Shown here: positions 15,777 through 38,682 of the stretch, piece after piece
Position numbering within the stretch: position 1 is the first letter of the stretch
How the letters are laid out: every line of letters starts with the position of its first letter
NCBI GenBank assembly: GCA_032718475.1
Contig: JAUCBJ010008546.1
Coordinates: 1 to 40,353, forward strand
Length of the DNA: 40,353 bases
Direction of reading: 5' to 3'
Source of the DNA: Nemertoderma westbladi
Taxonomy: Eukaryota; Animalia; Xenacoelomorpha
Notes under the pieces: generated by a model
Told to the model about the DNA's origin: nothing
Database searches by the model: none
The model's input: the letters and a program-made list of their open reading frames with translations, nothing else
Program-made: the position numbers and the translations under genes

Positions 15777-17002
15777 GTTTTTTTTTATTAACACCCCGAG
15801 CGGGGTAACAGGTTATGTTTTATTTAATTAACTATTAGTATTATACAGTGTACTTTAATATACGAAATTAAAATAATTTAAAATATAATAGGTAAAAAAT
15901 AATACTAAAAGGGGATAATCCGAAGACAGAACTAGAGGCTTCCTAGAAGGGATAGGTGTGGGCAACTCGCACATCTAATAGCATGGAGCCGGTTGGAAGC
16001 AGGACCCCCGCAGTAGATACAGGTGCAGGCATCCCCAAGTTCGTGAAAGGGGGTTTTATTTCGGCATATTTTCCAATGGAAACCATGGACAGTTACTCGA
16101 GTTATGAGGTGTCGATTCTTTTGGCCGGGAGAGCGCCACTGTGATGTTGTAAATGCAGGGCCTTCGGAATAATTTTCTGCAACAAATAAGCTTTCTTTTG
16201 TCTGGCGATGTAGTCGATATTGTTCTAGAACAGTAGGTTCAAACATTGAAGGATAACGCAGTGACAAATCTTCTATGTATGTGTTCGTTGGAATCATTTT
16301 CAGGGCCACGGTGGAAGATGCATTTTTTGGCAAACCAAGAAGACGTTTCACATAAGTTGATTTGATGATATCAATTTGTTTAAGGTTCGCGAGAGTAAAG
16401 AATTTGGCGATCTCTGTGAAGGCATAATTAACCATAGGGTCTATTTTCATTTGGAAGATAGTTAGACCAGTGTTAATAGAAACATGGTGAAGATCTTTTA
16501 GGCATCCTATTGCTGAGAAAGCTTTCCTTTTCTTCTGGTTTATGTGTCGTGAGAATGATAACGATGGTTGTAGGGTGACCCCTAGGTACTCGTATTCGTT
16601 GCATAACGGTACTTGGACGCCGTTGTAGTAGAATATATCTGCCCTGGATGTTCGACCGCCTTTCCTAAATTTAATTATTTTAGTTTTCCCCATATTTAAT
16701 TCCATCGAGTTTTTAATGGACCATTTGTAGAGTTCGTTTAGTGCGTTTTGGATATCACTGTTCTTTAGCGAGTATATAACCAGGTCGTCAGCAAAAAATA
16801 TGAATCTTATGGTAGAAGCAATTTGTTGAAGAACTTGTGCCAGGTCCGCAATAAACATCAGGAAGCAAGTAGGTGACAAAGAATCCCCTTGCAAAATACC
16901 CCGAAGTTGAACAATTACATTAGAAAATTTGACACCGTCAAAGACTTTCACAGAGTTTTTCAAGAGGGCCTTTATTAGATTGAGTGTTAATATTGTGATT
17001 GG
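15777..17002 (-). mobile_element. 5'-truncated LINE (RT C-terminal half, Cys/His motif and 3' UTR)
   Basis: Uninterrupted frame 17002-15932 with GILQGDSLSP, FADDL, KTK, YEYLG and CIYC...HAIRC. 3' hairpin ACCCC-GCTC-GGGGT, AATAAA and A-tail. 15-bp TSD AAATAAATAAATATA (15762-15776 / 17003-17017), which is low complexity. Confidence 0.9.
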
Positions 17003-17700
17003 AAATAAATAAATATAAAATATTATTATAAAAATAAGGGCTATAAAACATTTGTAAAAAATACAAATTCTTCATATAAATTTTCAATCCAATTACGACC
17101 AAAAAGTGAAATCCTGGTATTCTTCACAAGGGCGTCTGGGTCTTCTCACTGACTAGGTAGAGTAAAGCATAGCTATTAATTATCTTATATAGTTTTTAGT
17201 TTCAGTCAGTCGTTTCTGTCTGCCATTCCACTCAGTTTCGCCTAGTCGTTGATTTAGAGCTGTCAAGTTTATTATTACCTCCCAATGAATCGAATGTACC
17301 GCTGCTATAGTAGCTGTAATATGAAATATGATGTACCCCGGAGTTATAATATGCTATATAACAACTCGCTGCTTTGTTAAAATGTGGAAATATAATTATT
17401 TTGTTGCGCAAAGAAATTAATTTGAAGCGTGACATTTCATTCTGGAGAGAGAAAAAATAGTGGGATTTAATGTAATACAATATTTATGCATCTATGCAAC
17501 TATAAAGTACTTAAAAAATTCCGCATTTACTATGGCTTTCATTTGAATAACTCTTATGCTGAGTTTTGTATCATTGACTATATTACGTGCTAATGATAAT
17601 AATAATGGCTTTCGACTGGTAATTACTTTAGAGTAACAACGCCATACCCAGAGCGAAATTAATCTTATAAGATTACCATTACTGTATATTTTCACCAGTG

Positions 17701-18650
17701 TACGGACTACGGAGCCCTTAAAGGGATATGAAAAAATATGTGATATGCGTAAAACTTAGAGATGTGAGAAGTGGTTTCTATGTCGTATTTTAAAAATTCA
17801 TACCACGATGGAAGTTGTGTGCACAAGATACTAAGTTGTGCGCACAAGATACTAAGTTGTGCGCACAAGATACTAAGTTGTGCGCACACGATACTAAGTT
17901 GTGCGCACAAGATACTAAGTTGTGCGCACAAGATACTAAGTTGTGCGCACCGATACTAAGTTGTTCGCACAAGATACTAAGTTGTGCGCACAAGATACTA
18001 AGTTGTGCGCACACGATACTAAGTTGTGCGCACAAGATACTAAGTTGTGCGCACACGATACTAAGTTGTGCGCACAAGATACTAAGTTGTGCGCACAAGA
18101 TACTAAGTTGTGCGCACAAGATACTAAGTTGTGCGCACAAGATACTAAGTTGTGCGCACAAGATACTAAGTTGTGCGCACAAGATACTAAGTTGTGCGCA
18201 CAAGATACTAAGTTGTGCGCACAAGATACTAAGTTGTGCGCACAAGATACTAAGTTGTGCGCACACGATACTAAGTTGTGCGCACAAGATACTAAGTTGT
18301 GCGCACAAGATACTAAGTTGTGCGCACAAGATACTAAGTTGTGCGCACAAGATACTAAGTTGTGCGCACAAGATACTAAGTTGTGCGCACACGATACTAA
18401 GTTGTGCGCACAAGATACTAAGTTGTGCGCACAAGATACTAAGTTGTGCGCACAAGATACTAAGTTGTGCGCACAAGATACTAAGTTGTGCGCACAAGAT
18501 ACTAAGTTGTGCGCACAAGATACTAAGTTGTGCGCACAAGATACTAAGTTGTGCGCACAAGATACTAAGTTGTGCGCACAAGATACTAAGTTGTGCGCAC
18601 AAGATACTAAGTTGTGCGCACAAGATACTAAGTTGTGCGCACACGATACT
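17701..18650. mobile_element. Left half of a non-autonomous TIR DNA element with a ~40-copy 21-bp tandem array (17812-18650)
   Basis: Terminus TACGGACTACGGAGCCCTTAAAGGGATATGAAAAAA is the inverted counterpart of ~29578-29617. Repeat unit AAGTTGTGCGCACAAGATACT. TACGG..CCGTA ends recall IS3EU, but no TSD was found. Confidence 0.8.
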
Positions 18651-19290
18651 TCCTTTTCATTGTCTTTAATCAAATAAAATTGATATAAATGTAGTAAAAA
18701 GTGCACAGCACAATAAAAACTGACAGTCATTATAGTGTTACGATTCAAAATACACACTTGAATTAAATGTTACAGTACCAACCACAACCCATAAAAATGG
18801 AATAAGCGCAATAAACAGTTGTTAATATATTACATATTTGAAAGTTGTGTAACCATTTGTAGTGAAGCAATAGTGCAATTTAACAGGTAGAAATAGGGTG
18901 TCTTATTAAAAAAAAAATAATAATAATAATAATCCATGACAATATTCCAGTAGGGCTATTAAAAATTAAATTGAAATAAAATTAGACTCGATTAAAATAT
19001 CGTAAAATCCTGTCATGTTTTCCAGAGAAACTGATACCAACAAGGTCATAAGTCATTCTGATAAATTCAATATTTAAGATATCCTTTATGAGTGGTGTCC
19101 CCATTTCCAGCCGAGACATGAGAGATTTAAAATGATAGCTAAAGTTCAATAAAGATTTAGTTGTGGGTAACATGGTACCGCAGACCCGGAGTGTACTACC
19201 AATGCCACTATACTTTACACCATTGTCATTTAAACACAAAGCTACTCTCAAGGCCGATTGAAGTCTTGTGTTAGGACAGTTCTTTATTCT
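18651..19290 (-). mobile_element. 3' part of a 5'-truncated LINE ('LINE A'): end of ORF2 plus 3' UTR
   Basis: RIKNCPNTRLQSAL...CLND...YSGIGST...SLLNFSY...FIR...FSGKHDRILRYFN aligns with the C-terminus of the 1034-aa ORF2. ATTAAA lies near the 3' end. Confidence 0.85.
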
Positions 19291-19461
19291 TGATTCTAAA
19301 CTGTACAAATAGTTTGAACTGTACTGCTGTACTTGTAAACACTGTAACTGGATGACTGATTGGCCTGACTGTAGATTAAATTATTGTGGGCGCACACTTC
19401 GGCAACCATTCATTGAAATATAATAGGGGGATTTTCGTTGCATGGTGTACAATCCCACCCA

Positions 19462-22400
19462 ATGGATAACGTTCGGAAGATGAGCACGGTCAGGCTCAAA
19501 CGGTACTTAGAGAACTACGGCAAACCCACGGCTGGATCCCGTGCAGAAGTTCTAAGACGCGTTATGTGTCTCATAGATCGCGGAATAGCAGCTGCTCCCT
19601 CGGAGGTTCCGGTACCGGTAGTTAATCTAGTTGACGTTAAAATTCTAACGCCAACAGTTCTGGATCCAAAGTTTCCTGTAACCCGTGACAACCCCACCGA
19701 GGTTCCCGCAACCCGGAACGATTTCGCCGAGGTTCCTGCAACCCGGAACAACTCCTCTGAGGTTCCCATAACCCAGAATGACTCTCCCAAGGTTCCAGTA
19801 ACCCGTAACAACTTGAATGACTTTGCCAAGGTTCCTGCAATCCGGAACGACTACTCTGAGTTTCCAATAACCCAGAACGACTCTCCCAAGGTTCCAGTAA
19901 CCTGTGACAACCCCACCGAGGTTCTCGCAACCTGGAACGATTTCGCCACGGTTCCTGCAACCCGGAACGACTACTCTGAGGTTCCCATAACCCAGAATGA
20001 CTCTCCCAAGGTTCCAGTAACCCGTAACAACTTGAATGACTTTGCCAAGGTTCCTGCAATCCGGAACGACTACTCTGAGTTTCCAATAACCCAGAACGCA
20101 TCTCCCAAGGTTCCAGTAACCTGTGACAACCCCACCGAGGTTCTCGCAACCTGGAACGATTTCACCGAGGTTCCTGCAACCCGGAATGACTCCTCTGTGG
20201 TTCCCATAACCCAGAATGACTCTCCCAAGGTTCAAGTAACCCTTAACAACCTGAATGACTTCGCCAAGGTTCCTGTAACCCAGAACGACTTCACAGAGGT
20301 TCCATTAACCCGTGACAATCCCACCGAGGTTCCATTAACCCGTGACAATCCCACCGAGGTTCGAGTAACCCGTGACAATCCCACCGAGGTTCCATTAACC
20401 CGTGATAATCCCACCAAGGTTCCATTAACCCGTGACAATCCCACCGAGGTTCCATTAACCCGTGACAATACCTACGGGGTTCCATTAACCCATGACAATT
20501 CCACCGATGTTCCATTAACCCGTGACAATCCCACTGAGGTTCCATCAACCCGTGACAATCCCACCGAGGTTCCATTAACCCGTGATAATCCCACCGAGGT
20601 TCCATTAACCCGTGACAATCCCACCGAGGTTCCAGTAACCCGTGACAATCCCACCGAGGTTCCATTAACCCGTGATAATCCCACCAAGGTTCCATTAACC
20701 CGTGACAATCCCACCGAGGTTCCATCAACCCGTGACAATCCCACCGAGGTTCCATTAACCCGTGACAATTCCACCGATGTTCCATTAACCCGTGACAATC
20801 CCACCGAGGTTCCATCAACCCGTGACAATCCCACCGAGGTTCCATTAACCCGTGACAATCCCACCGAGATTCCTATAACCCAGAACGACTTCGCTGAGGT
20901 TCCCTCAAACCGGATCGACTTTACCGAGGTTCCAGTAACCCGTAACAACTCCACCGTGGTTCCAGGAACCCGTAACAACCCCACTGAGGTTCCAGCAACC
21001 CTGAACAACACTGCCAAGGTTCCCGTAACCCGGAGTGACTCTACCAAGATTCCAGTTACCCACGGCCACCCCACTGAAGCTCCAGCAACCCGGAGCAACA
21101 CTGCCGAGGTTCCCATAACCTGTAACAACTCCGCCAAGGTTCCAGTAACCCATGACAACCCCAATGAGGTTCCAGCAACCCGGAATGTGAATGCTAAAGT
21201 TCCTGTAACCCGTAATGACTCCACCAAGTTTTCAGTAACCCGGAACAACTCCACCGAGGTTCCAGTTACCCAGAACAACTCCACTGTGGTTCCAGTAACC
21301 CAGAACGACTCCACTGAGGTTCCCATAATCCGCGACAAACCAACTGATGTTCTAGTAACCCGGAAAGACTCTGCCAAGTTTCCAGCAAACCAGCACAACT
21401 CCACCAAGATTCCAATAACCCGGAACGATTCCGCCGAGGTTCCAGTAACCCAGTACTACTCCACCGAGGTTCTTGTAACCCATGACAAACTAACCAAGGT
21501 TCCAGTAACCCGGAATGACTCCACCGAGATTCCAATAACCCGGAACGACTCCGACAAGGTTCCAGTAACCCAGAACTACTCTGCCAAGGTTCCCGTAACC
21601 TATGACAAACTAACCGTGGCTTCAGTACCCCTGAATGACTTTCCCAAGGTTCCAATAACCCGGAATGGCTCCGCAAAGGTTCCTGTAACCCATGACAACC
21701 CAACAGAGGGTATAGCAACCCGGAACGACTCCCCCGAGGTTCCTGTGACCCGGAATTACTCCGCTGAGGTTCCCGCAACCCACATTGACTCTGCCAAGGT
21801 TGTAGAAACCTACAATGTCTCCCCCGAGTTTCCGGTAACCCAGAATTACTCCGCCGAAGTTCAAGTTCAAGTAATCCATAACAATCCCACTGAGGTTCCT
21901 ATAACCCGTAACGACTCCGCTGAGGTCATCATAACCCGTCACAACTCAGCCGTGTTTCCTGTATCCCATTACAACTCAGCTTCTGTTCCCGCAACCCGGA
22001 ATTTCCCCGCTGAGGTTCCAGTAACCTGTTACGACTACCTCAATGTGAATAGTGGATCTGGGACACAACCTTCTGCCTCCTCATTAAACGCATATGCCTC
22101 CTCATTTGTACCAGAGGTAGAAGACCTGGAAGATGATGGAAGCTGGACATTGAGGCGCCCTAGCATTACTCAATATCCATCTACTGTGCTTAATTCATCT
22201 GATTCACATGTTTTTGGTTCTTATGTTGGTTGTAATAGGGTCGATCTACAATTTCTAGGTGCTTACAATAGTAGTTGCAGTAGCGAGGTTGATTTACATG
22301 ATCTTGGTGCTTACATCAATAGTAGTAAGGCTGAGGTTATAGAGATAGCCCAGAATACTGATAATTATACATCTCCAACCCCTTTACTTAAGACTGGAAC

Positions 22401-25239
22401 TAATTCTATTCCCAATATACTTGACAATATTACTGATATTGAGGTCTATCCAGTCTCCTCCCAATCAAATGGAAAGTCCACTGATCAAATTGACATCATG
22501 ACTAGAAAATTCATGACTGACCACCTTAATATCAGTGATTCATCACGTTATACTGACATTGTTTTGCCAACAGCTAATGACTGTACCACTCTAAATACTT
22601 CTCAGTGGCTCAGTGACAATGTTGTTGATGGTTTTTTAGGAATACTGGAACGCCACTGTCAGAATTCAGTGTGGATATCAAGTGTCCTAACCCAAAAATT
22701 ACAGCATAAAAAGTTTGATACATACACAGCAGCTCAGTATGCATTTAAATACCTGATTGTTAAGCACCCAGTGCAATTTATTTTCTTTCCAGAGTGCTCA
22801 AACTCACATTTTGTTCTCCATGTCGGTGATACAACAACCAAAACAATCACCAGGTTATGTTCTATGGGTTCAACAAGGCCTTCAGCCGTGTCAAGGCGCA
22901 TCAGTTATATTTTAAATGAAGTGGATAGACTCAGCCCAAACCCTTGTAAGCCGGATCTTGAGAGCCATGTCAAGAGGTGGGGAGTATCAGCTTCCAAATA
23001 TGGATTTCCTGTTCAAAAAAATACTTATGACTGTGGTGTGTTTACATGTTTGTATGCTGTTGCGATTGCTTTGGGTAAGAAGGCATTACCAGACTTTTAT
23101 AAAGACAGCCTCTTAGCAAGGCAATGGATACGTGAAACATTAGAATCTCTCAAGTTGAATACTGATGATGTGTACATAAATCCACGTAACATGGATGCTG
23201 ATTCTTTTCCAACATACTCAGAGTATGATCTTTCTTCATTGCTTAATGTTCATAAGAGTACTACCATCAAGACCTTGGGTTCAGTAGAAACTCCAGTCAT
23301 ATCTGCCCTCCGTGATAGACTGTTCTGTGATGTCAAACCATTAATGAAACCCACTCAAGCTGCATCCTTGGAGTTACTCCCCCGTACATTAAAGAGGGAA
23401 CTTTCTACTGATATTTTCGAGTTAATGACTTGTCTCAAAGAGGGTACTTTCACAGCGTCATGCAGAAAAAGATTGAGGCTTAGTTGTAACTCTCACTCCA
23501 ATAGTTCCAGCAGTTCTAGCAATGGGTATGATCTACTGAAACATGAATTGATATCCTGCACTGAACTACTTCAAACTAGGATTACCATTGTCGATAATAA
23601 CAATGAGACCATGAAGCTAGAAATTCGTAACCTGAGGGATGAACTTAGTCAAGAAAGACATTCTAGGATTGTCCTGGAGGCAGAGTTAGAGGAAATTATC
23701 AAAGTAAAACAGAACAGAGAACCATCCACAACTGACTTTGTACCTTTCTCCCCCATTTCTCTCAGAAGGGGAGACGTTAACCTTGACAATTATTTAATAA
23801 TTGACGCAGCAAGTTCTTCAAATGACGATTGCGCCCTTAATTCACAAAATCCCGAATCTGTCAATAGATCATGTGATCTACTGCCTAATTCTCAGCAACA
23901 GAATTTACAAAAATTCCAGAAAGTTCCAACGAAAAAAAAAAAAAAAACTAGGAAACTAAAAAGGCATTGTAGCAATACTAAGGCAACATCTATGAATCAA
24001 GAGAAGGATCACAAGGATCCACAAATCGTTACTGAATCATCATCTGATTCTACTTGCTCTACCACGTTTAGCCCCGATCCTGTCCCACCCAATTGCAAAA
24101 CCACATCAATTCCATCAAGTGGTCTGATTAACAAGCCTACTGCACCGAAGGACACCAAATTCTCTAGTGAAATTTTGAGTATATCAAAGCCAATGCAATT
24201 TACTTCTGAGACATCCCGGCTTAGCACTAAATCATATCCGCGTGCATTTGGTGCCTCATCTAAAATTAATACATCTACTCATGGAACACAACATCTTACC
24301 AATTACGAGTCAGAGGACACACTCCAGTATCCTTACTCTCATCTGTATATAACTGGCGTAAAACGCAAATATAACATAGATGAGGTCACACATTACTTAA
24401 AAGCCAGGAACATAATATCCCATCGCATAAAAATTATTACTTACAACAAAGTTCTTGGAACTATCAATATGCGAGTCACTGTTGATGCTTGCAATGAGGA
24501 CAAAGTTCTTGAAATAAATTTCTGGCCACCCGGTGTGCGCTGCCGACTTTGGCGATTTTCTTCTTTACGCAATACACATCATATGCCTAACACTTATGAA
24601 ATAGGATTTAACACTCAATCTGGTAGAGAGTGCCACCACTATCATAACTATCAAAACTTCAATCATCATGCTTCCAAGAACTGTGGAAAGATTGTTGACC
24701 CAGCACATCTGGACGATTATCAACGACATCCATATGTCAAAGATCGGAACACTCAAATATGTCATGGTATTAATGATTACTCAGCTCAACTTGGTGGAGA
24801 TGGCCGAGGATCTCATTGCTTTAATCGACGTACTTCCAATTGCTATGCTAATGGTGAGGTCTCAGCACAATCGGATAGTGATCACTACACCTCAAGAAAT
24901 TATGCATACAACAATAATTCTAATCAATTACGTGGTTATGGCGGATGCTCCCCCAATTTTGATCATCGGAACACTTCCAACAACAATGCAAACACTAATG
25001 CTTCAGCTCATAACAATGGCGAATATTGCAACACTCATGACTTTGATCCGCATGCTGTGAATACAAGTGATTCAGCAGAATATGGCAGATTTGATCAATA
25101 CACTCACAATTCACCAAATCACCCATATAATTCATATACCTCAAGTAACTTTGTAGATTACAATTCAGCTCACTTTAGTGATGATGGTGCACGCATACGC
25201 GATTGTAACCTTGATCGGAACTTTATGAACTGTGTTTAA
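19462..25239 (+). CDS. LINE B ORF1, ~1925 aa: SAP, 10-aa repeats, PAM2-like motif, Ulp1/C48-like domain, coiled coil, basic patch, RRM-like domain, N/H/Y-rich tail
   Basis: First ATG at 19462 (the track starts at TTG 19438). Motifs: MSTVRLKRYLENYGKPTAGSRAEVLRRV; SLNAYASSFVP; WLSDNVVD...SHFVL...QKNTYDCGVF; HLYITGV...FWPPGVRCRLW. Confidence 0.9.
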   Translation: MDNVRKMSTVRLKRYLENYGKPTAGSRAEVLRRVMCLIDRGIAAAPSEVPVPVVNLVDVKILTPTVLDPKFPVTRDNPTEVPATRNDFAEVPATRNNSSEVPITQNDSPKVPVTRNNLNDFAKVPAIRNDYSEFPITQNDSPKVPVTCDNPTEVLATWNDFATVPATRNDYSEVPITQNDSPKVPVTRNNLNDFAKVPAIRNDYSEFPITQNASPKVPVTCDNPTEVLATWNDFTEVPATRNDSSVVPITQNDSPKVQVTLNNLNDFAKVPVTQNDFTEVPLTRDNPTEVPLTRDNPTEVRVTRDNPTEVPLTRDNPTKVPLTRDNPTEVPLTRDNTYGVPLTHDNSTDVPLTRDNPTEVPSTRDNPTEVPLTRDNPTEVPLTRDNPTEVPVTRDNPTEVPLTRDNPTKVPLTRDNPTEVPSTRDNPTEVPLTRDNSTDVPLTRDNPTEVPSTRDNPTEVPLTRDNPTEIPITQNDFAEVPSNRIDFTEVPVTRNNSTVVPGTRNNPTEVPATLNNTAKVPVTRSDSTKIPVTHGHPTEAPATRSNTAEVPITCNNSAKVPVTHDNPNEVPATRNVNAKVPVTRNDSTKFSVTRNNSTEVPVTQNNSTVVPVTQNDSTEVPIIRDKPTDVLVTRKDSAKFPANQHNSTKIPITRNDSAEVPVTQYYSTEVLVTHDKLTKVPVTRNDSTEIPITRNDSDKVPVTQNYSAKVPVTYDKLTVASVPLNDFPKVPITRNGSAKVPVTHDNPTEGIATRNDSPEVPVTRNYSAEVPATHIDSAKVVETYNVSPEFPVTQNYSAEVQVQVIHNNPTEVPITRNDSAEVIITRHNSAVFPVSHYNSASVPATRNFPAEVPVTCYDYLNVNSGSGTQPSASSLNAYASSFVPEVEDLEDDGSWTLRRPSITQYPSTVLNSSDSHVFGSYVGCNRVDLQFLGAYNSSCSSEVDLHDLGAYINSSKAEVIEIAQNTDNYTSPTPLLKTGTNSIPNILDNITDIEVYPVSSQSNGKSTDQIDIMTRKFMTDHLNISDSSRYTDIVLPTANDCTTLNTSQWLSDNVVDGFLGILERHCQNSVWISSVLTQKLQHKKFDTYTAAQYAFKYLIVKHPVQFIFFPECSNSHFVLHVGDTTTKTITRLCSMGSTRPSAVSRRISYILNEVDRLSPNPCKPDLESHVKRWGVSASKYGFPVQKNTYDCGVFTCLYAVAIALGKKALPDFYKDSLLARQWIRETLESLKLNTDDVYINPRNMDADSFPTYSEYDLSSLLNVHKSTTIKTLGSVETPVISALRDRLFCDVKPLMKPTQAASLELLPRTLKRELSTDIFELMTCLKEGTFTASCRKRLRLSCNSHSNSSSSSSNGYDLLKHELISCTELLQTRITIVDNNNETMKLEIRNLRDELSQERHSRIVLEAELEEIIKVKQNREPSTTDFVPFSPISLRRGDVNLDNYLIIDAASSSNDDCALNSQNPESVNRSCDLLPNSQQQNLQKFQKVPTKKKKKTRKLKRHCSNTKATSMNQEKDHKDPQIVTESSSDSTCSTTFSPDPVPPNCKTTSIPSSGLINKPTAPKDTKFSSEILSISKPMQFTSETSRLSTKSYPRAFGASSKINTSTHGTQHLTNYESEDTLQYPYSHLYITGVKRKYNIDEVTHYLKARNIISHRIKIITYNKVLGTINMRVTVDACNEDKVLEINFWPPGVRCRLWRFSSLRNTHHMPNTYEIGFNTQSGRECHHYHNYQNFNHHASKNCGKIVDPAHLDDYQRHPYVKDRNTQICHGINDYSAQLGGDGRGSHCFNRRTSNCYANGEVSAQSDSDHYTSRNYAYNNNSNQLRGYGGCSPNFDHRNTSNNNANTNASAHNNGEYCNTHDFDPHAVNTSDSAEYGRFDQYTHNSPNHPYNSYTSSNFVDYNSAHFSDDGARIRDCNLDRNFMNCV
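19675..22030 (+). repeat. Coding 30-bp tandem repeat (GAGGTTCCATTAACCCGTGACAATCCCACC; EVPLTRDNPT) within ORF1
   Basis: Directly visible. Most homogeneous at ~20297-20870; a 219-bp higher-order duplication lies at ~19760-20200. Confidence 0.95.
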
Positions 25240-25288
25240 CCCATCATCCAGGCAGCCCAGCAGCAGCACATGTCAAGAGGCTTCTGAA

Positions 25289-28200
25289 ATGCTTAATATA
25301 CGTATAGGTTCCTACAACTGTCATGGTATCAAGTCCAGTATGGATGAGGTAGCTCAGCTTCTAACTGACCTTGATATACTCGCAGTGCAGGAACACTGGC
25401 TAGACGATTTGGAGGCCAAACTACTTTTGCCTAATTTAAATAATGAATTTATCTGCCTCTTCAGCATCGGATCACTAATGCAGAATCCCAATCGGGTACG
25501 TGGTTCAGGCGGTGTATGTTTATGGTTCAGGAGGGATCTATTTCATCATGTTAGTGCCATTTACAGCTCCGATGACATTATTGGTTTCGAGGCTTCCCCT
25601 AAATGTTCTGATGTTTTTGGCCCAAATATCATATTCATCAGTTGTTATGCTCCAGATGCCTCCAAAGATGACAATTTATATGAGGACTTCCTTTCACGCC
25701 TTACAAACATAATCAACCTACACTCTTTCGCAATCCCGTTTATTCTAGGTGACACAAATTCAGATGTTGGCCGTTTGCAAGGACCCCGACACTGCAGGGA
25801 CAATGCAACAAAGCGTGGAAAAAGGCTAAATACTTTTGCTCTGAACAATAACCTTGTCGTCGCGGACACTCTTCCAAAGTTTTCAGGACCTTGTATTACT
25901 TACAGGGGTAATGGAACTTCATACATAGACCACCTTCTAATTAGTAAGCATACTTACGATAATTTACTTGTTGGAGTGATACATGATCAGGACATGTATC
26001 TATTTTCAGATCATGTACCAATAACTGCTGTCTTTAGTTTTCCAACCACAACCTCATCATCACCCAAAGTCGATGCATATAATATTAAGAAGACAAGGGT
26101 TTCACCTAAAGTAGCTTGGAACAGGGTACAAGAATATCATATCCTTAAATATGAGAAGGACATTCAGAATCAGCTGAATACATTATATGAATCTACTTTG
26201 GGACCAGCAATACACTGGACAGGCTTGGAGTTATATGAATTCGTTGTTCGATTTCAAGAAATAATTATAACTGCTGCCAATATCCACTTACCCAAGTGCC
26301 CTAAACGCAGTAAATTAAGTAGAAACTTACGGATTCGATCAGCTGTTTTGCACGACAGATCAAAAACGTGCAGTAAGTTACACTGGTTATGGACCATGAA
26401 TGGCAAGAAAGAAGACTGTAAGTTTGGAGCAGCATTTACAGAATCTCGACGATCACTCAAACGCTTAAAGAACTGGCTTTCAAAGTCAATTGTCACCGAT
26501 AATATTAAGAGGAGGGTGGGGAACATGAAGAGCAATCCACGTAATTTTTGGAATTTTTTCAAAGCCAAGTCTGTCCATACCCCGCCTGAGCTTGCTCAAG
26601 AAGCGATCCGTAAAGACCTCCACGACACCCACTTCAAGAACGATTTGTATGATCAGTCTAGAACCGAGTTTGTTCAGGAGTTGCATGATCGTTGCTCAAC
26701 CACAACTGCTCCTGTAATATCTGCTCTCACTGTGAAAAGAGCTATGGCATCTCTCTCACGAGGTAAATCTCAAGATGCATTTTCATTAGTGGCAGAACAC
26801 TTTCTTTGTTTAAACTCTGACTACACTTATCAGGCTCTCGCCGATATATTCAATGGCTGTTTCAGGTTAGGAGTGCCAGAACTCTTCGGGCACACTATTA
26901 TCACCAGTCTTCACAAAGGAAAAGGTCGGGATCCTCTTCTGGCCAAGTCATATCGCCCTATTTCAACAGTCAGTTGCTTAGGAAAGATTTTTGAATCTGT
27001 GGTACTGGCCGAATTTTTATCAATACCTGAATTCATACCTGGCTCTCAATTCGCATACCAACGCAAGATTGGTTCGGACATAATAATTGGGTGTATCCTT
27101 GAATTCCTTGAAGCACAGCGATCGAGTGGTAAATCGGTTTTCCTATGCCAGATCGACATCAAAGGGGCCTTTGATAATGTTGACCATATATTATTGTTCC
27201 GCAAGTTGTTACAACACATTAATCCGCATATATGTTTCGCTCTATACACTTACTATACATGCACAATGGCATTTCTGAAATTTGGCGACTACATTGATAG
27301 CGACGGGATACACCTAATCAAAGGAGTCAAACAAGGATCCTTACTATCACCCTTATTATTTTTGTTGTATACTAAAGATGCGCTACACAATATGAATGAT
27401 GATGGCGCTGGGTTCAATATAACTTTGATGTGGCTTGGTATCGTGGCTTATGCCGACGATTTTCTTCTTTGCGCCGACACAGCTGCCAAACTTGAGACAC
27501 TTGTTGCTCGCCTTATTGATGTACTAAATGATCTGAAACTTCAGGTCGAACATAGCAAGACAAAATGGATCTGTCATCGTGGAATTGGGACTACCACTGC
27601 ACCGATACCTTGCTTCATTAACGCAGGCGGTACTCTAATAAGCGAAAGTCCTACGTTTGTTTTCCTTGGATTCAATTTATTATCCGCACCCAACTCAAAC
27701 CTCCATAAAGACTGTATCCAGACAATCTCGATACTCTCAGATATGTTCCATCGGAAAGGTTGGACAGTCCGCAACATCGACATTGATACTATTTCCTATC
27801 TGTGGCGAACTATTGCCGTCCCATCTATTTCGTACAGTCTGAAATTCAACATAGGGGCACTCAGTAAGGTTGCCATTGAGAAGGTTGATGTTCACTACCG
27901 CAAGGCATTGCGTGGTCTCCTGCATATTGGTTCCTACGTTGACAACAACATTGTATACAAAATTTTAGGCTGCCATCCCATATCCACAATAGCATATCAA
28001 CTATGTGTTGGGACTATACTGAGGTCTCGTTATTGCCCTAATATAATTTTACAAGCTCTGCTGGGGGTTTGCTTAAATGATACAATGGCCGGTAACCGCC
28101 GTTATGTTGGTCTCGGCTCGACCTATGATGCGTGTAGATGTACTTTCCCACTGCCACGTCTGTCATCATTACTGAGTTACAGCTACAGTATGCGTTCATT

Positions 28201-28336
28201 GAAAGAGAGATTACAACCTGACCAACTCACATATCTAGAGACATTTCAACTCAATTTTATTCGCAGCTGCTATTACTCATCCGGTACTTTCACTGATAAG
28301 CATGAACGTATCCTAAGTTTTTTCAACATTTCATAG
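25289..28336 (+). CDS. LINE B ORF2: AP-endonuclease plus reverse transcriptase
   Basis: APE motifs SYNCHG, VQEHW, GGV, YAP, GDTN, IDH, SDH. RT motifs YRPIS, DIKGAFD, GVKQGSLLSP, YADD. First ATG at 25289, 49 nt after the ORF1 stop (the track starts at GTG 25232). Confidence 0.96.
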   Translation: MLNIRIGSYNCHGIKSSMDEVAQLLTDLDILAVQEHWLDDLEAKLLLPNLNNEFICLFSIGSLMQNPNRVRGSGGVCLWFRRDLFHHVSAIYSSDDIIGFEASPKCSDVFGPNIIFISCYAPDASKDDNLYEDFLSRLTNIINLHSFAIPFILGDTNSDVGRLQGPRHCRDNATKRGKRLNTFALNNNLVVADTLPKFSGPCITYRGNGTSYIDHLLISKHTYDNLLVGVIHDQDMYLFSDHVPITAVFSFPTTTSSSPKVDAYNIKKTRVSPKVAWNRVQEYHILKYEKDIQNQLNTLYESTLGPAIHWTGLELYEFVVRFQEIIITAANIHLPKCPKRSKLSRNLRIRSAVLHDRSKTCSKLHWLWTMNGKKEDCKFGAAFTESRRSLKRLKNWLSKSIVTDNIKRRVGNMKSNPRNFWNFFKAKSVHTPPELAQEAIRKDLHDTHFKNDLYDQSRTEFVQELHDRCSTTTAPVISALTVKRAMASLSRGKSQDAFSLVAEHFLCLNSDYTYQALADIFNGCFRLGVPELFGHTIITSLHKGKGRDPLLAKSYRPISTVSCLGKIFESVVLAEFLSIPEFIPGSQFAYQRKIGSDIIIGCILEFLEAQRSSGKSVFLCQIDIKGAFDNVDHILLFRKLLQHINPHICFALYTYYTCTMAFLKFGDYIDSDGIHLIKGVKQGSLLSPLLFLLYTKDALHNMNDDGAGFNITLMWLGIVAYADDFLLCADTAAKLETLVARLIDVLNDLKLQVEHSKTKWICHRGIGTTTAPIPCFINAGGTLISESPTFVFLGFNLLSAPNSNLHKDCIQTISILSDMFHRKGWTVRNIDIDTISYLWRTIAVPSISYSLKFNIGALSKVAIEKVDVHYRKALRGLLHIGSYVDNNIVYKILGCHPISTIAYQLCVGTILRSRYCPNIILQALLGVCLNDTMAGNRRYVGLGSTYDACRCTFPLPRLSSLLSYSYSMRSLKERLQPDQLTYLETFQLNFIRSCYYSSGTFTDKHERILSFFNIS

Positions 28337-28838
28337 TACAAACGGCAATGTTTTATTTTTTTATGTACTCTGAGTGACAGCATACTCTTTTCCATACACT
28401 ATATTGATTATAACATAATGTTGCCTTCATTGATTATATATTTATTTTACAATTGTGACAATTTCCTCTGCTCGATGTAATAATATCAATTTATAATATT
28501 GACTACAACCACAGGGATGTACCGTTGTAATATTTAAAACTTGGATCAGATTTCAATCGTTAATTATGTATTGTTATTTATTGTATTGCGTATTGCTCAT
28601 TGTCCGGTAATGCTCTAAATCATTTGAACTATTCAGTACAAAGTTTTTGCATGCAAAGTAATTGTGTCCATGAGTGGCGACTGACAACTAACACCTTGCA
28701 TTCTTCAGCCACCTCTATGATATTTTAATCACATACTTTATATTTTTAGCCAGCTGTTTTATTGTGCATTTGCGTGCATTTTTATTTACATTTACCCTGT
28801 ATTGTCGCCTCGTGCGAATTAAATCAAATATATATATA

Positions 28839-29401
28839 TATTCTAAAGAGTAATCCCACAGAGGCCCGAACGGATTCAAGTGACAATGGTCGCACCCCCA
28901 TAAGGTCATAGATTGCAGAGTTACTAACATAGCTGCCGACATGCAATAAGTTTCTGAGGACACGCCGATGCAAGGCATCAATGGACTCCCGTTCAGAACT
29001 AGAAATCGAGCCCATTACAAGGCGGGTAAAGAACAGTAGCCGAGGCTCAGCCACAGACCTCCACAATGTAGCTATGGTATCTATGCTATACCACCTTGTT
29101 GTCCAACCCTTCCTATAGAATAAACTTGAGAGGAGTAACAGTTCTTGACGAATATCGCAAACAATATCATTTTCTGACCCAAAGATTTTTACCCCAAGAA
29201 AGGTCATGTGTCGACCCCGCATAATATTGCAGCCGTTGATTCTTATGCTGCTGTGAATGTCAACACCCATTGGTTTGCCTGTAGGCTCCCGAACGATCCA
29301 ACATGTTTTGGAATCTTCAATGTCCAAAGAAATATTATTTGCACCCACATTAATCCGATCTGTAATAATTTGTAGATCTTTCTCTGAGGAACACATCACG
29401 A
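28839..29401 (-). mobile_element. 5' part of truncated LINE A (RT from just after YADD)
   Basis: SKTCWI...FLG...FYRKGWT...IDTIATLWRSVA.P...LRNLLHVGSYVSN aligns with LINE B ORF2 (SKTKWI...FHRKGWT...IDTISYLWRTIAVP...LRGLLHIGSYVDN). Candidate TSD GATACT at 18645-18650 / 29402-29407. Confidence 0.9.
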
Positions 29402-29617
29402 GATACTAAGTTGTGCGCACAAGATACTAAGTTGTGCGCACAAGATACTAAGTTGTGCGCACAAGATACTAAGACGTGCCGACGTGCGCACACGATACTA
29501 AGTTGTGCGCCAAACTTAGATAAGTTATGCGCAAGATACAACTGTAAGTTGTGCGCACAACTTACGAAACAAAATATTTTTTTTCCAAATGCCCCTTCAG
29601 AGGCTCCGTTCTCCGTA
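29402..29617. mobile_element. Right half of the TIR element with 21-bp repeats
   Basis: Same GATACTAAGTTGTGCGCACAA units in the same orientation, then the terminus TTTTTTCCAAATGCCCCTTCAGAGGCTCCGTTCTCCGTA. Confidence 0.8.
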
Positions 29618-29939: not shown

Positions 29940-30371
29940 TAATTATCAGTATACCAGACTGCCAGACCAGTCCTGTAGTCAGCATGTCAGTTGTAGTAGA
30001 CTAGAGGACTAGTACTAGTACGGTACTGGAGTCCAGTTCCAGTAGTCAGGTAGTGAGTACAGAGTATTCGACTCGAGGGAGGGGGTTGAGGCTAAAGCAG
30101 ATAAGCCGCCCATTCACCATTACACTATTGCTGTAGACCAGTACTGCAGTATACCGGCAATATACAGATATAGGGCCTACAGATATTATAGCTGTATAGG
30201 CCTAGGCACTAACTTCTCGTCTACAAGTCAGCAAGTCCTACTCTACTAGGCCTATTATACCTGTATACTGGTATACCGATAGTATTATTACCGCACACCC
30301 AGGTCTGCTTTCCAGTACAACTGCAGTAGCCTGGTAGCTAGCCTACCGGTTTTATAGCAGTAGGCTATAGA
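29940..30371 (+). promoter_or_regulatory. Probable promoter/5' region of DDX56
   Basis: Dense TAGGCCTA/TAGCCTA/CAGTAC/ACTAGT words, the same signature seen upstream of MASTL. Inference only. Confidence 0.4.
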
Positions 30372-32030
30372 ATGGAGTCGGCAGCTGCGAAAGAAGTTGG
30401 ATTTGCGACGATGGGATTGGACGATCGCTTGTTGAAGGCGATATCGTGGTTGGGTTGGAACAAACCGACGTTGGTACAAGAGAAAGCAATTCCGCTGGCG
30501 CTGGAAGGTAAGGATATACTGGCGAGAGCTCGGACCGGTACCGGTAAGACGGGAGCGATGACGATACCGATGCTACAGAAACTACTTCTAAGAAAGAAAC
30601 TCAAAAACCAACGGTGTATATCCACGCTGATACTAGCTCCCAGCAAGGAGCTTTCCACCCAAATCCACTCGAATATAGTCGGTTTAACTCGATGCTGTCA
30701 GCGGGATGTCCGTGTTCTAGACATATCCTCGGATTGCGACATCGACGAACAAAAACAACTCCTTAAAGATCTTCCCGATATTGTTATTGGAACTCCTAAA
30801 AGGATTGCCAGCCACATTAAGGCCGCCAATATGCTTTTAGATCAACTCAATACAGTTTGTTTGGATGAAGCTGATCTTTTATTCTCCCTCGGTTTCGAGA
30901 GCGACGTTAAGTTTATTATAGATAAACTCCCGAGCGTTTATCAAGCTTTTATGATGTCTGCAACGTTTAATTCCAATGTTAAGTCCATCCGTAAAGTTAT
31001 CCTTCACAACCCAGTGGTGTTGAAACTCAAAGAGAGTCGTTTACCTGAGTCGAATCAACTCGATCAGTTTCATATCGTTTGCAAAGACGACCTCGATAAA
31101 TTCCTTATTATTTGCGCTATTTATAAACTCAAACTACTCCGTGGTCGCTCCATTATATTCGTTAGTTCGGTGGACCGCTGCTATAAAGTCAAGTTGTTTC
31201 TCGACTTATTCAACGTTAAGTGCTGCGTGTTAAACGGGGAACTTCCATTGGAGACGCGATGCCATGTGGTGTCCGAGTTTAATGGGTTGAAGTACAATCA
31301 CATTGTGGCCACGGACACCAAGGCTAAAGGCTCAGAGTACTGCGTGTCCAGGGGGATCGACTTCCAGCAGGTGGACAACGTGGTCAATCTGGATCTCCCG
31401 AAGGATCTCACCGGATACATTCACCGGATCGGTAGGACTGCCCGCGGCGAGCGGTGTGGCACCGCGGTCTCACTGACTCTACCCGAGCAACTGCCTCTAC
31501 TCCGATCCATAGAGGAGGCTTTGAGTAGCGAGTTGGAGCAGAACGAGACGGTAGTTAAATCATTTACGTTTAAGATGGAAGAGATTGAAGGTTTGCGATA
31601 CAGAGTTGAGGACGCCTACAGGTCTGTTAACAAACACGCGGTCTTTCAATGCAGGATGAAGGAGATACGAGCTGAAATGATCAACTCTATTAAATTGAAG
31701 ACTTTCTTTGACGAGAATCCCAGGGACTTACAACTTCTGCGGCAGGATCGACAGAGGAAACCAAATCGTTTGAAGCAGCATCTACAACATATTCCGGACT
31801 ATCTGGTTCCTCAAGGTCTCAAAGATTTACAGGTTGATGAACCGAAGAACGAGGCGAAAGAGGTTCGAGAATCGAAGAAAAGGAGGAAGAAGAATCGTAA
31901 GAGGAAACGTACGGAAGAATCTGTGCCTCGTAGGAATACGGAAGAGGCGTCTAAACGGAAAGCGAAACGACCTAGGTTAACTGATAAAGACCCACTGAGA
32001 TCCTTAAAGATTGGTGATCGCAAACTCTAA
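30372..32030 (+). CDS. DDX56: DEAD-box RNA helicase DDX56/DBP9 (60S biogenesis), single uninterrupted 552-aa ORF
   Basis: GLDDRLL..I..LGW.KPTLVQEKAIPLALEGKD, ARARTGTGKT, LAPSKEL, LDEAD, MSAT, SRGIDF, YIHRIGRTARG, plus DDX56-typical FF.ENPRDLQLLR, HIPDYLVP and the terminal DPLRS. Confidence 0.95.
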   Translation: MESAAAKEVGFATMGLDDRLLKAISWLGWNKPTLVQEKAIPLALEGKDILARARTGTGKTGAMTIPMLQKLLLRKKLKNQRCISTLILAPSKELSTQIHSNIVGLTRCCQRDVRVLDISSDCDIDEQKQLLKDLPDIVIGTPKRIASHIKAANMLLDQLNTVCLDEADLLFSLGFESDVKFIIDKLPSVYQAFMMSATFNSNVKSIRKVILHNPVVLKLKESRLPESNQLDQFHIVCKDDLDKFLIICAIYKLKLLRGRSIIFVSSVDRCYKVKLFLDLFNVKCCVLNGELPLETRCHVVSEFNGLKYNHIVATDTKAKGSEYCVSRGIDFQQVDNVVNLDLPKDLTGYIHRIGRTARGERCGTAVSLTLPEQLPLLRSIEEALSSELEQNETVVKSFTFKMEEIEGLRYRVEDAYRSVNKHAVFQCRMKEIRAEMINSIKLKTFFDENPRDLQLLRQDRQRKPNRLKQHLQHIPDYLVPQGLKDLQVDEPKNEAKEVRESKKRRKKNRKRKRTEESVPRRNTEEASKRKAKRPRLTDKDPLRSLKIGDRKL

Positions 32031-35004: not shown

Positions 35005-35576
35005 TTGACTTTTATTGTTGAGTTTCTATTTATTGTTATTGTTTTGGGTAGAATAACCTGCTCCTTTCCCTAAATTGGGAATTTAACAATGAGGCGGGAT
35101 ATTAATTCGCCAAGGTGGGTTTTTCGTCCAGCCCCCCCCCCCCCCTCCCCCCCTGTTGGGTAGGTGAATAGTTTATCCATTTATTTCACTGGCTTAGTGC
35201 CTTCACTCTACTGTATGATGCTGGAACTATATTGTTAAGACCGTTCTGATAAAACTTTTTATATATACGCTCTCGGCAATAGTTGGTTGCCGTAACTCGC
35301 AAGTTCGCACAATATTTGTTGGCTTCGAGGATTCAATGATTTCATAATTTTTATTGAATTACAAATGACTAGGAATGACAATGAAAGAGTAAGCAAGTAG
35401 CTACGTATAACTCAGTTAATGTCTTTTATATTAATAGTTGAATGGAGCGGGGGGGGGGGGGGGTGGTGTATGCTCGGCGAATTAAATATCTTGTATCAAT
35501 GTTCAATTACAAATGAAGGGAAAGGAGCAGGTTACAGCTATGCGTTATTCTAACCAAAACAATAAAGGAAAGTCAA
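35005..35576. repeat. ~100-bp imperfect inverted repeats flanking a ~365-bp spacer bordered by poly-C and poly-G
   Basis: ATTGTTTTGGGTAGAATAACCTGCTCCTTTCCCT...AATTCGCC versus GGCGAATT...AGGGAAAGGAGCAGGTTA...TTATTCTAACCAAAACAAT. A third partial arm lies at ~35933-35990. Confidence 0.65.
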
Positions 35577-36216
35577 CCCCTGCATGAATTTTGATTCATT
35601 GATTTTGAATTTGATTGCGTGTATTGTGCCGTCACCACCATCACCCCTCCCCCCCCAATATCGTATAATGACGATTAAGACACCGTTTTGGTCCGGGGTG
35701 GTGTATTTTCTTTGTTAACACGCGGATAAATTGTAGAGACAACGGTTTATGTTGCCCCCGTCGCCGAAAGGAAATTCAGTAAAACTGCTGCCATTGGCTG
35801 TTTAATAGTCCATCGCATCGTAGATATAATAATATCATTACGTTCTACAGATAAAATCGGGTTATGATATTCGACTATAATATGAGACAGGGGGGGGGGG
35901 GGGGGGGGGGATTTGATGCAAATCCAAAATCAGCGAATTCCTCTCTCGTCTCACTGTTAAATGATCAATTAAGGGAAATGAGCAGGTTACAGTGGCAGGT
36001 TATTGTAACCAGCACATTAAATCTCAAGGTATTAGAGCGGAGAGCAATCAGCTGTTATTTGCCTATTATTTTTTTATTGCATCGAAAGATCCCCCCCTCC
36101 CCCATCCGTAGAATGTATTCTAAATAAAGCTGTTATAATTTTTCGTATAATTTTTTGTCACCAAATCGTAGCTCGTGATATGTTCCTGTCCATACACTAT
36201 ATATTGTTGCTTTTAG

Positions 36217-36431: not shown

Positions 36432-38682
36432 GTAGGTACAATATAATATACTTACATATTTATCATTTATAATTATTTATTCTTTAATTGGATTTTCTCA
36501 TATTTTATGTTGTAAAATTTATAGGCACCAAAAAATTGGTATATCTTGGTGTATACATTTTTCGAACTAGATAAATCACTCTTTTAATTTCGATATTAGT
36601 TTGTAGTTAATTCGGTTTATATTTTTATTTAGGTACTTTTTGGACCGATTACAGGCTAAAACCTACCTTTTTTTTTTACCTGGGTAAACGTACCTCATAT
36701 TATTGTTATTGTATGTATTTGATTGTAAGTTGCTCTTATTTTACATTGAGCAAGGCAGCATCAGGAGTTGAAGAGTTAATAATAATTGGATTCGTGGTTA
36801 CTTATGAAGTAAAGTCTGAATTATTCATATTTCAATTTATATTGTTATCACTATTTCATTATATATTTTATCACAATTACAGAATCCAGCGTTTGGAATG
36901 TGCTTTAAGAATAATATTGTATACTACATTGGGAAAAACGTATCAGCAGATTTTCGCCTTTCTCTGTACATTTGTTTTTTTGCCTTCATCATATGGTGGG
37001 AAAATGTTCCAATTTTTCACCATTAAAAATTCATTTATTTCCAAAGTTTCTAACTTTTCAATTACGACCGCGCACTCGAATGATGTATTGGCACGTAAAA
37101 CTTTAAGGAATTAAATGTCAAATATTTTGGTCAAAGTTTTAAAATTTGAACCGCTAAACGGATTTCTGTCATTCAAGTATCGTTCGAAAGCTAATTTTTT
37201 GCTCTTTAACATATATAAATTGTAAAATTGTAGCACATATTTAATTATACACAACATGAGAAAGTAAATCCCAAAATACATAAAAACGTAGACTTGTCAA
37301 TGATTTGTGTTGTTTTGGAAGTGGTGGCGTCATAATAGATCGAAAATGAAGAATTAAAAACACGTTTATGCAAATATATAACATACCTATGTGATCCTCA
37401 TATAATTTACAGTTCAGTAAAACTACTTGCATTACATTAGCATCGATTTTATCGCGACAGGAAACCCAAGTATAAAGTATAAGGAGATTTTATGTGTCGT
37501 AAAACCTCTGTAACCACTTTATTTTCATAAAAAAATTATATCTTGAAATTTCAGTGTTAAATTTCATATATAATTTTTCTATACTAAAATTGTATGTTCT
37601 ATTCGGTGGAACCATCCAAAATATCATATCTACAGTATTAGCGGTATGAAATTGGGATAAAGTTTATTACAACTACGCGAAATATAGAGACAAGCTGTCT
37701 TGGAAATCAAAATTCAAGGCTATAAAAAAAATCAGAGACTGTCCTTAAAAATCCCCGGTTATGCTTCCAAGACTACACATATTGTTAGGCTTCATATGCA
37801 TTAAGTGTCATATTTTTAATGAATTGTAGTTTGGCTACAGGAGCTAGAATCTCCAACAGACAATTATTAAATAAGTAGTCTTGTCAACGTAGACTTGCCA
37901 AATATTGAGTGGTTTTGTCCATAAATATGGTAGTCTTGTAACAATGCCTTCGTGAATACTGTATATAAATTATTGGACAAGTTTACATATTTTTCTTGAC
38001 AAGTTACATATGAAATGCGTAACTTGTCAACAATAATCCCATAGGCGTACAGGACGGGAGGCATTCTCTATGGGCCGAAATTGCAGGCATAATGAAGAAT
38101 GAAGGGCAAAATTGTTGAGTATTAAAGCTTTTTCCAACAGTATTATATTACTGCAGAGGTAAAGGTCCACTGTTATATACCGAACGGTAATATACAAGCG
38201 TTAGTTTTATCAAACTATTATTACATTGTTTAAAACGTTTGATTTAAATGTGCAAAATCCCAACATTGTTAAAAAAATGTCAATTTTGCCCCCCCCCCCC
38301 CCCCCCCCCTCCCAGTGGAAATGGTTCCCGTACTCTTATGACTAGTCCCGTAGCCTTTGTCCACCGATAATTAATAATAATTACATGGTTGTATAATGTA
38401 GGCAAGATTTACATACTTTATGAACGTGGAGTACGGATATCACCGAGTATTCTCGTTCTAGAGGTTAGGGACATAATATAAAAGGAGCCTGTTTGCACTA
38501 TTAATTGTCCTGCGGTTGAAGGCCTAATATCGAAATTATGTAATTTAGTTTGATTGTTAATCAATTTTATATAAATGTAAACGTAATTCTGTTAAATGTA
38601 TATATTTTGAATGTTTGGATATTGAAAGATCTATCTATACTGAAAGCAGATTTCATTATGTCGTATAATTTATGTAGAGTCT

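Follow-up and report, generated by a model that had tools for sequence, protein, structure and literature searches.

Can a SUMO protease-like domain that has exchanged a catalytic residue, and that is carried by a retrotransposon, still be an enzyme, and what would it do for the element that encodes it? The question is raised by a stretch of 40,353 nucleotides from Nemertoderma westbladi (Xenacoelomorpha; contig JAUCBJ010008546.1 of assembly GCA_032718475.1), which was analyzed as a whole and is referred to here as the window. On its plus strand, within the first open reading frame (ORF1) of a long interspersed nuclear element (LINE), lies a domain related to yeast Ulp1 and the SENP proteases. 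Our results identify it as a true member of this family with an altered active site, for which we tentatively propose a slow but continuing catalytic function.

ORF1 encodes an Ulp1/SENP-type domain with a non-canonical active site

The region 22576–23142 translates in frame without a stop, contains all the motifs that a sequence-only reading of this DNA had picked out earlier (QWLSDNVVD, SHFVLHVGD, TITRLCSM and PVQKNTYDCGVF), and belongs to a single open frame extending from 19438 to 25239. In Pfam, the family Peptidase_C48 (PF02902), which has a gathering score of 20.7 bits, matched the domain alone with 31.2 bits (E 2.5e-7) and the whole of ORF1 with 24.5 bits. A phmmer search of the PDB returned yeast Ulp1 (1euv, E 6.1e-9), SENP1 (2.3e-8), SENP2 (2.6e-6) and SENP5 (0.02), and the alignment of the domain with Ulp1 covers residues 31–213 of the 221 in 1euv. 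These matches and the predicted fold described below bear out the earlier assignment of this stretch, which codes for a true Ulp1/SENP-type domain (Peptidase_C48, clan CE) at 22555–23136 on the plus strand.

The catalytic residues of yeast Ulp1 are numbered H514, D531, Q574 and C580. In the phmmer alignment, SHF of the query is paired with SHW of Ulp1, RLCS with YVDS, and PVQKNTYDCG with PQQPNGYDCG; the His+17 and Gln+6 spacings are the same in both proteins, and a Cys of the query falls on the Ulp1 Asp. The query residues concerned (H1124, C1141, Q1193 and C1199) are counted from the TTG at 19438, and counting from the ATG at 19462 makes each number 8 lower. On the plus strand, the Trp of WLSD, which is the first Trp of the tunnel that receives Gly-Gly, is kept (TGG, 22606–22608; W in 128 of 150 relatives), the catalytic His (CAT 22807) is followed by Phe (TTT 22810) in place of Trp (22807–22812), the catalytic Asp position is a Cys (TGT, 22858–22860; the same in four DNA runs), and both the oxyanion-hole Gln (CAA, 23014–23016) and the nucleophile Cys with the Gly next to it (TGT 23032; 23032–23037) are kept. 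The positions and spacings proposed earlier for His, Gln and Cys therefore agree with the Ulp1 alignment, and alignment and codons alike confirm that the Asp position is Cys and that the Trp after the His is Phe. Because an Asp 17 residues past the His and a second tunnel Trp were looked for and Cys and Phe were found instead, the domain is, as judged from its sequence, a C48 family homologue with a non-canonical active site, and not a canonical triad enzyme.

The AlphaFold2 model, built with an alignment of relatives (A1, described below), had a mean predicted local distance difference test score (pLDDT) of 78 and a predicted template modeling (TM) score (pTM) of 0.77, with pLDDT values of 92–97 in the active-site blocks. 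Compared to the PDB by Foldseek, it gave 58 matches at E ≤ 0.001, with Ulp1 first (2hl9, E 1.3e-10), followed by SENP1, SENP2 and SENP5. The SENP5 matches had TM scores of 0.81–0.84 and root-mean-square deviations of 2.8–3.2 (for 9gnx, TM 0.84 by target length and a deviation of 2.9 over 199 columns). Matches at E ~5e-7 were to SENP7 and to NEDD8 proteases (2bkq, 2bkr and 1xt9), bacterial and viral clan CE enzymes stood lower, and the viral I7L proteases reached E ~1e-5 with TM scores of 0.3–0.38. The fold had been named beforehand as the point on which the identification could fail, and the predicted fold is that of clan CE, as was to be expected of a model built from a C48 alignment. The sequence matches were to Ulp1, SENP1, SENP2 and SENP5 only, and the NEDD8 proteases were reached by fold only and with weaker scores, for which reason SUMO appears to be favored over NEDD8 as the type of substrate; the earlier suggestion of a deNEDDylase is correspondingly weakened.

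The two substitutions are rare among relatives of the domain

A HMMER search of 1.84 billion representative proteins with the domain gave 206 matches at E ≤ 0.001, one of which reached 1e-10 and none 1e-30, and the best identity was 32–34%. The column counts given here rest on the matched domains from the best 150 of these 206 relatives, aligned with the query. The catalytic His column holds 149 H and one gap, and the query has H. In the next column the relatives have W in 148 cases, H in one and a gap in one, so that the Phe of the query is found in the query alone (0 of 150). The Asp column has 141 D, six N, one H, one C and one gap, against C in the query, while Gln, the nucleophile Cys and the next Gly are each present in 150 of 150 relatives and all three are kept. 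Alignment A1 comprises 115 of the 150 relatives; the 35 excluded by hand were for the most part long or multi-stretch proteins. Of the 18 columns of A1 that are invariant or nearly so, 16 are kept in the query, among them all four fully invariant ones (His, Gln, Cys and Gly), and the two missed are exactly W121 and D137; also kept are the Asp before the nucleophile Cys, an Asn, a Pro and further conserved positions. By these column counts, the combination of Asp-to-Cys and Trp-to-Phe in one active site is rare. Since each of the odd codons is two base changes away from the canonical one (TGT versus GAT/GAC, and TTT versus TGG), neither substitution is a single fresh point error.

The sole relative among the 150 with Cys in the Asp column, P0139, is a C48 protein of 320 residues from a public assembly (67 bits). 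Its motif TIYYFCSCG places the Cys at His+17, followed by Ser as in the query, and its His-Trp, Gln and Cys are intact, so that it retains the canonical Trp that the query lacks. The two proteins are 23% identical, and BLASTP pairs Cys with Cys. In a FastTree tree of 151 domains over 207 columns, which is weakly resolved and in which the proteins are unnamed, P0139 is not a neighbor of the query (distance 4.06, compared to 2.3–3.3 for the nearest). Common descent of the Cys was rejected on the basis of this distance, and the change probably occurred independently in the two proteins.

In the same tree, the query lies in three nested clades of 5, 10 and 33 members, with supports of 0.91, 0.82 and 0.83, respectively. 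Apart from the query, the 32 members of the largest clade have 26 D, four N, one H and one gap in the Asp column, compared to 115 D, two N and one C in the other 118 relatives. By this tally, the third triad position tolerates change more readily in the branch of the query. The terminal branch of the query itself is long, at 1.10 versus a median of 0.62. Among the tree neighbors, P0054 combines a protein-primed PolB with C48, and P0040, P0140 and P0062 combine C48 with a PHD finger. Since the C48+PHD architecture has been described for Ginger1 and Mutator transposases, the domain of the query would seem to be of the kind of Ulp1 that is found in mobile elements. No PHD finger was detected by Pfam in ORF1.

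The domain is carried by a full-length APE-type LINE

The domain was also predicted to lie inside the long ORF1 of a retroelement, and this proved correct: the open frame is followed by a second one (ORF2) encoding a reverse transcriptase preceded by an APE endonuclease. The element is a full-length non-LTR retrotransposon (one that lacks long terminal repeats), i.e., a LINE, of 9548 bp at 19291–28838 on the plus strand, nested in another repeat. A contig end directly before 28839 is identical to window positions 19255–19284 and represents the empty site; on the basis of this match, the target-site duplication is the 6-bp TATTCT at 19285–19290 and 28839–28844, and the bounds of the element are those given. 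ORF2 occupies 25289–28336 (first ATG 25289; frame open from 25229), with the APE endonuclease at ~25307–26023 (ORF2 residues 26–261; Exo_endo_phos, E 9.3e-12) and the reverse transcriptase at ~26930–27679 (residues 567–816; RVT_1, E 1.5e-25), both on the plus strand. Pfam detected no restriction-like endonuclease in the 220 residues that follow the reverse transcriptase. The best PDB matches of ORF2 were R2 proteins (E 6.5e-13), human L1 ORF2p was absent among the six matches at E ≤ 0.01, and relatives of ORF2 are distant (seven matches, the best at 25% identity). A 3' untranslated region at 28337–28838, delimited by contig comparison, ends in a short (TA)n/A-rich tail.

Contigs assembled from four DNA runs (X1–X4) were compared to the window over 22100–29380. 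The runs come from one organism, three studies and at most three samples, and may include the sample of the window itself, so that they are not independent support. Other copies pass into A-rich tails after 28829, contigs start at the internal points 28720 and 28738, and sequencing depth rises from 53–153 over ORF1 to as much as 447–685 at 28661–28903, as expected from 5'-truncated copies. With its endonuclease and reverse transcriptase, target-site duplication, empty site, A-rich tails and 5'-truncated copies, the element is an APE-type LINE. Two open frames of 5.8 kb and 3.1 kb, the 6-bp duplication, the empty site, the A-rich run-offs, the internal starts and the rise in depth at the 3' end make it look recently active.

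Over 22100–25258, X1, X2 and X3 each yielded one contig of uniform depth, with 2, 2 and 3 differences, respectively. For X4, two overlapping contigs with 0 differences reach from 22100 to ~24040 only. None of the differences in these four runs falls inside 22576–23142, nor did the runs show, over 22100–25258, any copy with a divergence of up to 20%. X2 and X3, which derive from the same sample, each have single differences that are not the same in the two runs, a hint that there may be two or more near-identical copies of full length. Diverged fragments were seen in X1–X4 for ORF2 only and none for ORF1. In X2 and X3, a diverged ORF2 copy skips 660 bases (26579–27240), has 101 other letters between, and shows ~50 differences over 357 bases; such differences and the skip indicate that older, broken relatives of ORF2 exist in the organism. 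A sibling copy was likewise not found in runs X5–X8, which comprise runs of two other organisms from one of these studies and two small runs of the same organism as X1–X4 and gave no matching contig; this is no proof of absence. A domain search of long proteins gave 482 candidates, none at E ≤ 0.001, and searches of metagenome contigs (with the domain and with ORF2), viral contigs and prokaryote genome contigs returned no close relative.

The LINE interrupts a multi-copy outer repeat (18651–19290 and 28839–29396), which has a depth of 205–463 compared to 53–153 for ORF1 and contains minus-strand open frames at 28824–29405 and 18982–19380 that match no Pfam family. On either side of this outer repeat lies an array built from a 21-nt unit that has a palindromic core (AAGTTGTGCGCACAAGATACT), at 17812–18650 (40 copies) and 29397–29530 (about 4–6 copies). 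The arrays were considered as the LINE's own termini and rejected as such; they are part of the interrupted repeat.

The C48 domain lies between a repeat array and the C-terminal part of ORF1

ORF1 encodes 1926 residues from its first ATG (19462–25239, plus strand), or 1933 from the TTG at 19438. Near its N-terminus, at 19471–19569, an 80-residue piece gave a SAP match of 22.6 bits (E 7.9e-5), just under the Pfam cut-off of 23.9, and is referred to here as a SAP-like motif. It is followed at 19665–22026 by an in-frame array of ~70 ten-residue repeats (PVTRDNPTEV-like), whose periods of 30, 90, 99, 120 and 219 nt are all multiples of three. The higher-order periods, 99 and 219 nt, do not divide evenly into 30-nt units. 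The array has a GC content of 0.52, versus ~0.39 elsewhere, and the strand opposite it is open for up to 311 codons, as is often so for repeats without stops.

After the repeats come, in order, a linker, the C48 domain, a heptad-rich stretch, a lysine run, an RRM-like segment and an Asn/His/Tyr-rich tail. The heptad-rich stretch (23521–23721) is likely a coiled coil, as its sequence and a weak Pfam leucine-zipper match (E 0.034) suggest. The segment at 24322–24564 reads as a possible RRM-like RNA-binding module of the ORF1 protein (ORF1p); it has no Pfam match, its single-sequence fold reached a pLDDT of 45.5, and its matches in the Atlas are only to unnamed eukaryotic clusters, at 0.91. For the C-terminal part of ORF1, no shorter homologues and no Pfam family were found. 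ORF1 contains two Gly-Gly pairs (residues 1786 and 1835), compared to 1.34 expected by chance.

The domain may act as a weakened SUMO isopeptidase

The third catalytic residue weighs less in cysteine than in serine proteases, and an uncharged thiol pairs poorly with His. With this in mind, our tentative reading, which the sequence makes a real possibility, is that of a weakened yet still catalytic SUMO-type isopeptidase riding on the ORF1p of the LINE. The His-Cys pair and the Gln of the oxyanion hole would still cut after the C-terminus of a ubiquitin-like protein, the Cys that replaces Asp would hold the His in a poor orientation and so slow the turnover, and the Phe may loosen the clamp on Gly-Gly. 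The SAP-like motif might hold ORF1p on chromatin or DNA, where stripping SUMO from proteins of the host or of the element would weaken the SUMO-dependent repression to which the LINE is subject. By analogy, relief from such repression is a plausible benefit, as repression of transposons that have inserted into fly ribosomal DNA requires the SUMO pathway (PMC7676866).

We know of no role for the His, Gln, Cys and Gly besides catalysis. Because these residues are kept at ≤34% identity and both long frames are intact, continued catalysis is favored, and the four residues together with 12 other conserved positions would speak against a domain that is long dead.

Several observations weigh on the other side. 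In SENP1, C603A, H533A and D550A each severely diminish the hydrolysis of SUMO1 (PMC9268427), and the defect of D550A makes full activity of the Cys variant unlikely. The Trp-lined tunnel is described as essential for the placement of Gly-Gly (PMC4397505), and, given these two reports, both altered residues strike known functional sites. In addition, the Phe after the His has no counterpart among the relatives, a stepwise path from Asp to Cys would run via Gly or Tyr and be easier under relaxed constraint, the terminal branch is long, no sibling copy carrying the domain was found in the runs or contig searches, and the CE fold of the model was expected from the alignment used to build it.

The placement of both deviating residues in the catalytic center, with the SENP1 D550A and tunnel data just cited, would also suit a pseudo-enzyme that no longer cleaves and still grips SUMO or a SUMO-like fold, so that it docks ORF1p to SUMO-marked chromatin or nuclear bodies; the kept WLxD motif and fold and the long branch are in keeping with this as well. 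We regard this explanation as unlikely, if deserving of serious attention. Binding alone has no known need for Gln, Cys and His, yet all three are kept, along with the Gly, the Asp before the nucleophile and the Asn, and the N or H common at the third position in the same clade, in domains otherwise intact, marks a tolerance which suggests that a change there is not a sign of death.

Alternatively, the domain might be a passenger or relic, i.e., an Ulp1 module acquired from another mobile element, no longer needed and intact merely in a young copy. Its nearest tree neighbors have transposon-style architectures (P0054, P0040, P0140 and P0062; supports 0.82–0.91), two two-step codon changes fall in the active site, no diverged sibling of at least 80% identity was seen in the four runs over 22100–25258, and no search gave a close relative. 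This we consider rather improbable, since neutral drift down to ≤34% identity would not spare 16 of 18 conserved columns, nor would it leave a frame of 1926 codons open.

Viral clan CE proteases cut their own polyprotein in cis, and self-processing has reportedly been proposed by Malik and Eickbush (2000) for the NeSL-1 polyprotein. Self-processing of ORF1 had also been suggested earlier for the present domain. A cut in cis that frees the SAP/repeat part of the 1926-residue ORF1 product from its C-terminal part would fit an ORF1 that is unusually long and modular, and with Phe instead of Trp the tunnel might in principle accommodate residues bulkier than Gly, but such self-processing is very doubtful and finds no support here, as the Gly-Gly pairs are at chance level and both lie in the C-terminal tail and not between modules, and the sequence matches are to Ulp1/SENP, with the viral I7L proteases far lower in the fold comparison.

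The proposal of a weakened isopeptidase can be extended in a bolder direction. The LINE may have rebuilt the site as His/Cys/Gln/Cys with a tunnel widened by Phe, giving a working enzyme with new behavior on ORF1p, for example one switched by thiols or metal, or one that accepts ends other than Gly-Gly. It would then be the first enzymatic ORF1 protein to be described for an APE-type LINE and a direct counter-measure against SUMO-dependent silencing. We see this as a long shot.

Other features of the window

Upstream of the LINE, the window contains a 5.3-kb satellite at 1102–6437 with a 24-nt unit (GTAATGGTAGAATAATAAGTAATG) in ~226 copies with 89% matches; its GC skew is 0.94–0.96 over 2001–6000, one strand being almost without C. 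A plus-strand frame at 2–463, open at its 5' end, matched DUF6451 with 25.2 bits, under the cut-off of 28. On the minus strand, 15932–17071 carries part of a further retroelement (RVT_1, E 2e-15), which is only 21% identical to the LINE ORF2 over 182 residues and belongs to a different family. Downstream, an uninterrupted frame of 562 residues at 30342–32030 on the plus strand encodes a DEAD-box helicase (DEAD, E 5e-36; Helicase_C, E 2e-20), probably a host gene beside the repeat cluster. Runs of 14–21 G or C occur at 35054–35989 and 38276–38313, and around them lies a pair of 103-nt inverted repeats, 78% complementary and 730 nt apart. Rfam found 0 families in the window.

Relation to known Ulp1-like proteases and mobile elements

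Ulp1 and SENP1, 2, 3 and 5 share with the query the family, the predicted fold, the WLxD motif, the His, Gln and Cys-Gly, and the His+17 and Gln+6 spacings. The query differs from them by the Cys in place of Asp and the Phe in place of the second tunnel Trp, its identity to every relative is ≤34%, and its domain is embedded in the ORF1 of a retrotransposon, whereas theirs is a cellular protease.

N-terminal Ulp1-like cysteine proteases are also found in NeSL elements and Utopia-1_TSP, and NeSL-1 and Utopia-1_TSP resemble the present element in being non-LTR elements with such a protease upstream of the reverse transcriptase (PMC4640811). The element descriptions in that source set those proteases apart from the query domain: they reside in the only ORF of their element, in which the reverse transcriptase is followed by a restriction-like endonuclease, whereas here there are two ORFs, an N-terminal APE and a protease in ORF1. 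The LINE thus lacks both features by which the NeSL/Utopia clade is defined, a single ORF and a restriction-like endonuclease C-terminal to the reverse transcriptase. Ulp1 domains have further been described in Ginger1 and Mutator transposases, with a C48+PHD architecture (PMC2836005). Ginger1 and Mutator/KI-MULE elements are alike in carrying a transposon-borne Ulp1, and tree neighbors of the query carry C48+PHD too; in those class 2 elements, however, the Ulp1 domain is joined to a DDE transposase (PMC2836005). Dualen/RandI elements are APE-bearing non-LTR elements with a protease domain of the type that acts on ubiquitin-like modifiers; the domain of Dualen is Josephin-like, of a family other than C48, and the architecture of the element differs (PMC8557442).

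A literature search for Ulp1-like, C48 or cysteine-protease domains in non-LTR elements or their ORF1, covering titles, the starts of abstracts and some passages, with Repbase Reports and subscription journals outside its coverage, turned up no APE-type LINE whose ORF1 contains an Ulp1 domain; this is no proof, but the architecture appears to be undescribed.

SUMO-dependent chromatin silencing is a main host brake on transposons. Ulp1-like domains occur in many unrelated mobile elements, and we know of none with a demonstrated role. An intact and apparently recently active LINE with a C48 domain in a presumably ribonucleoprotein-forming ORF1p would offer a compact system for asking if transposon SUMO proteases are anti-silencing factors. 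The natural Asp-to-Cys and Trp-to-Phe pair, together with P0139, would allow a test of whether the third triad residue is dispensable in clan CE. Should the domain be inactive, it would instead be an example of a protease fold that has been retained as a binding module.

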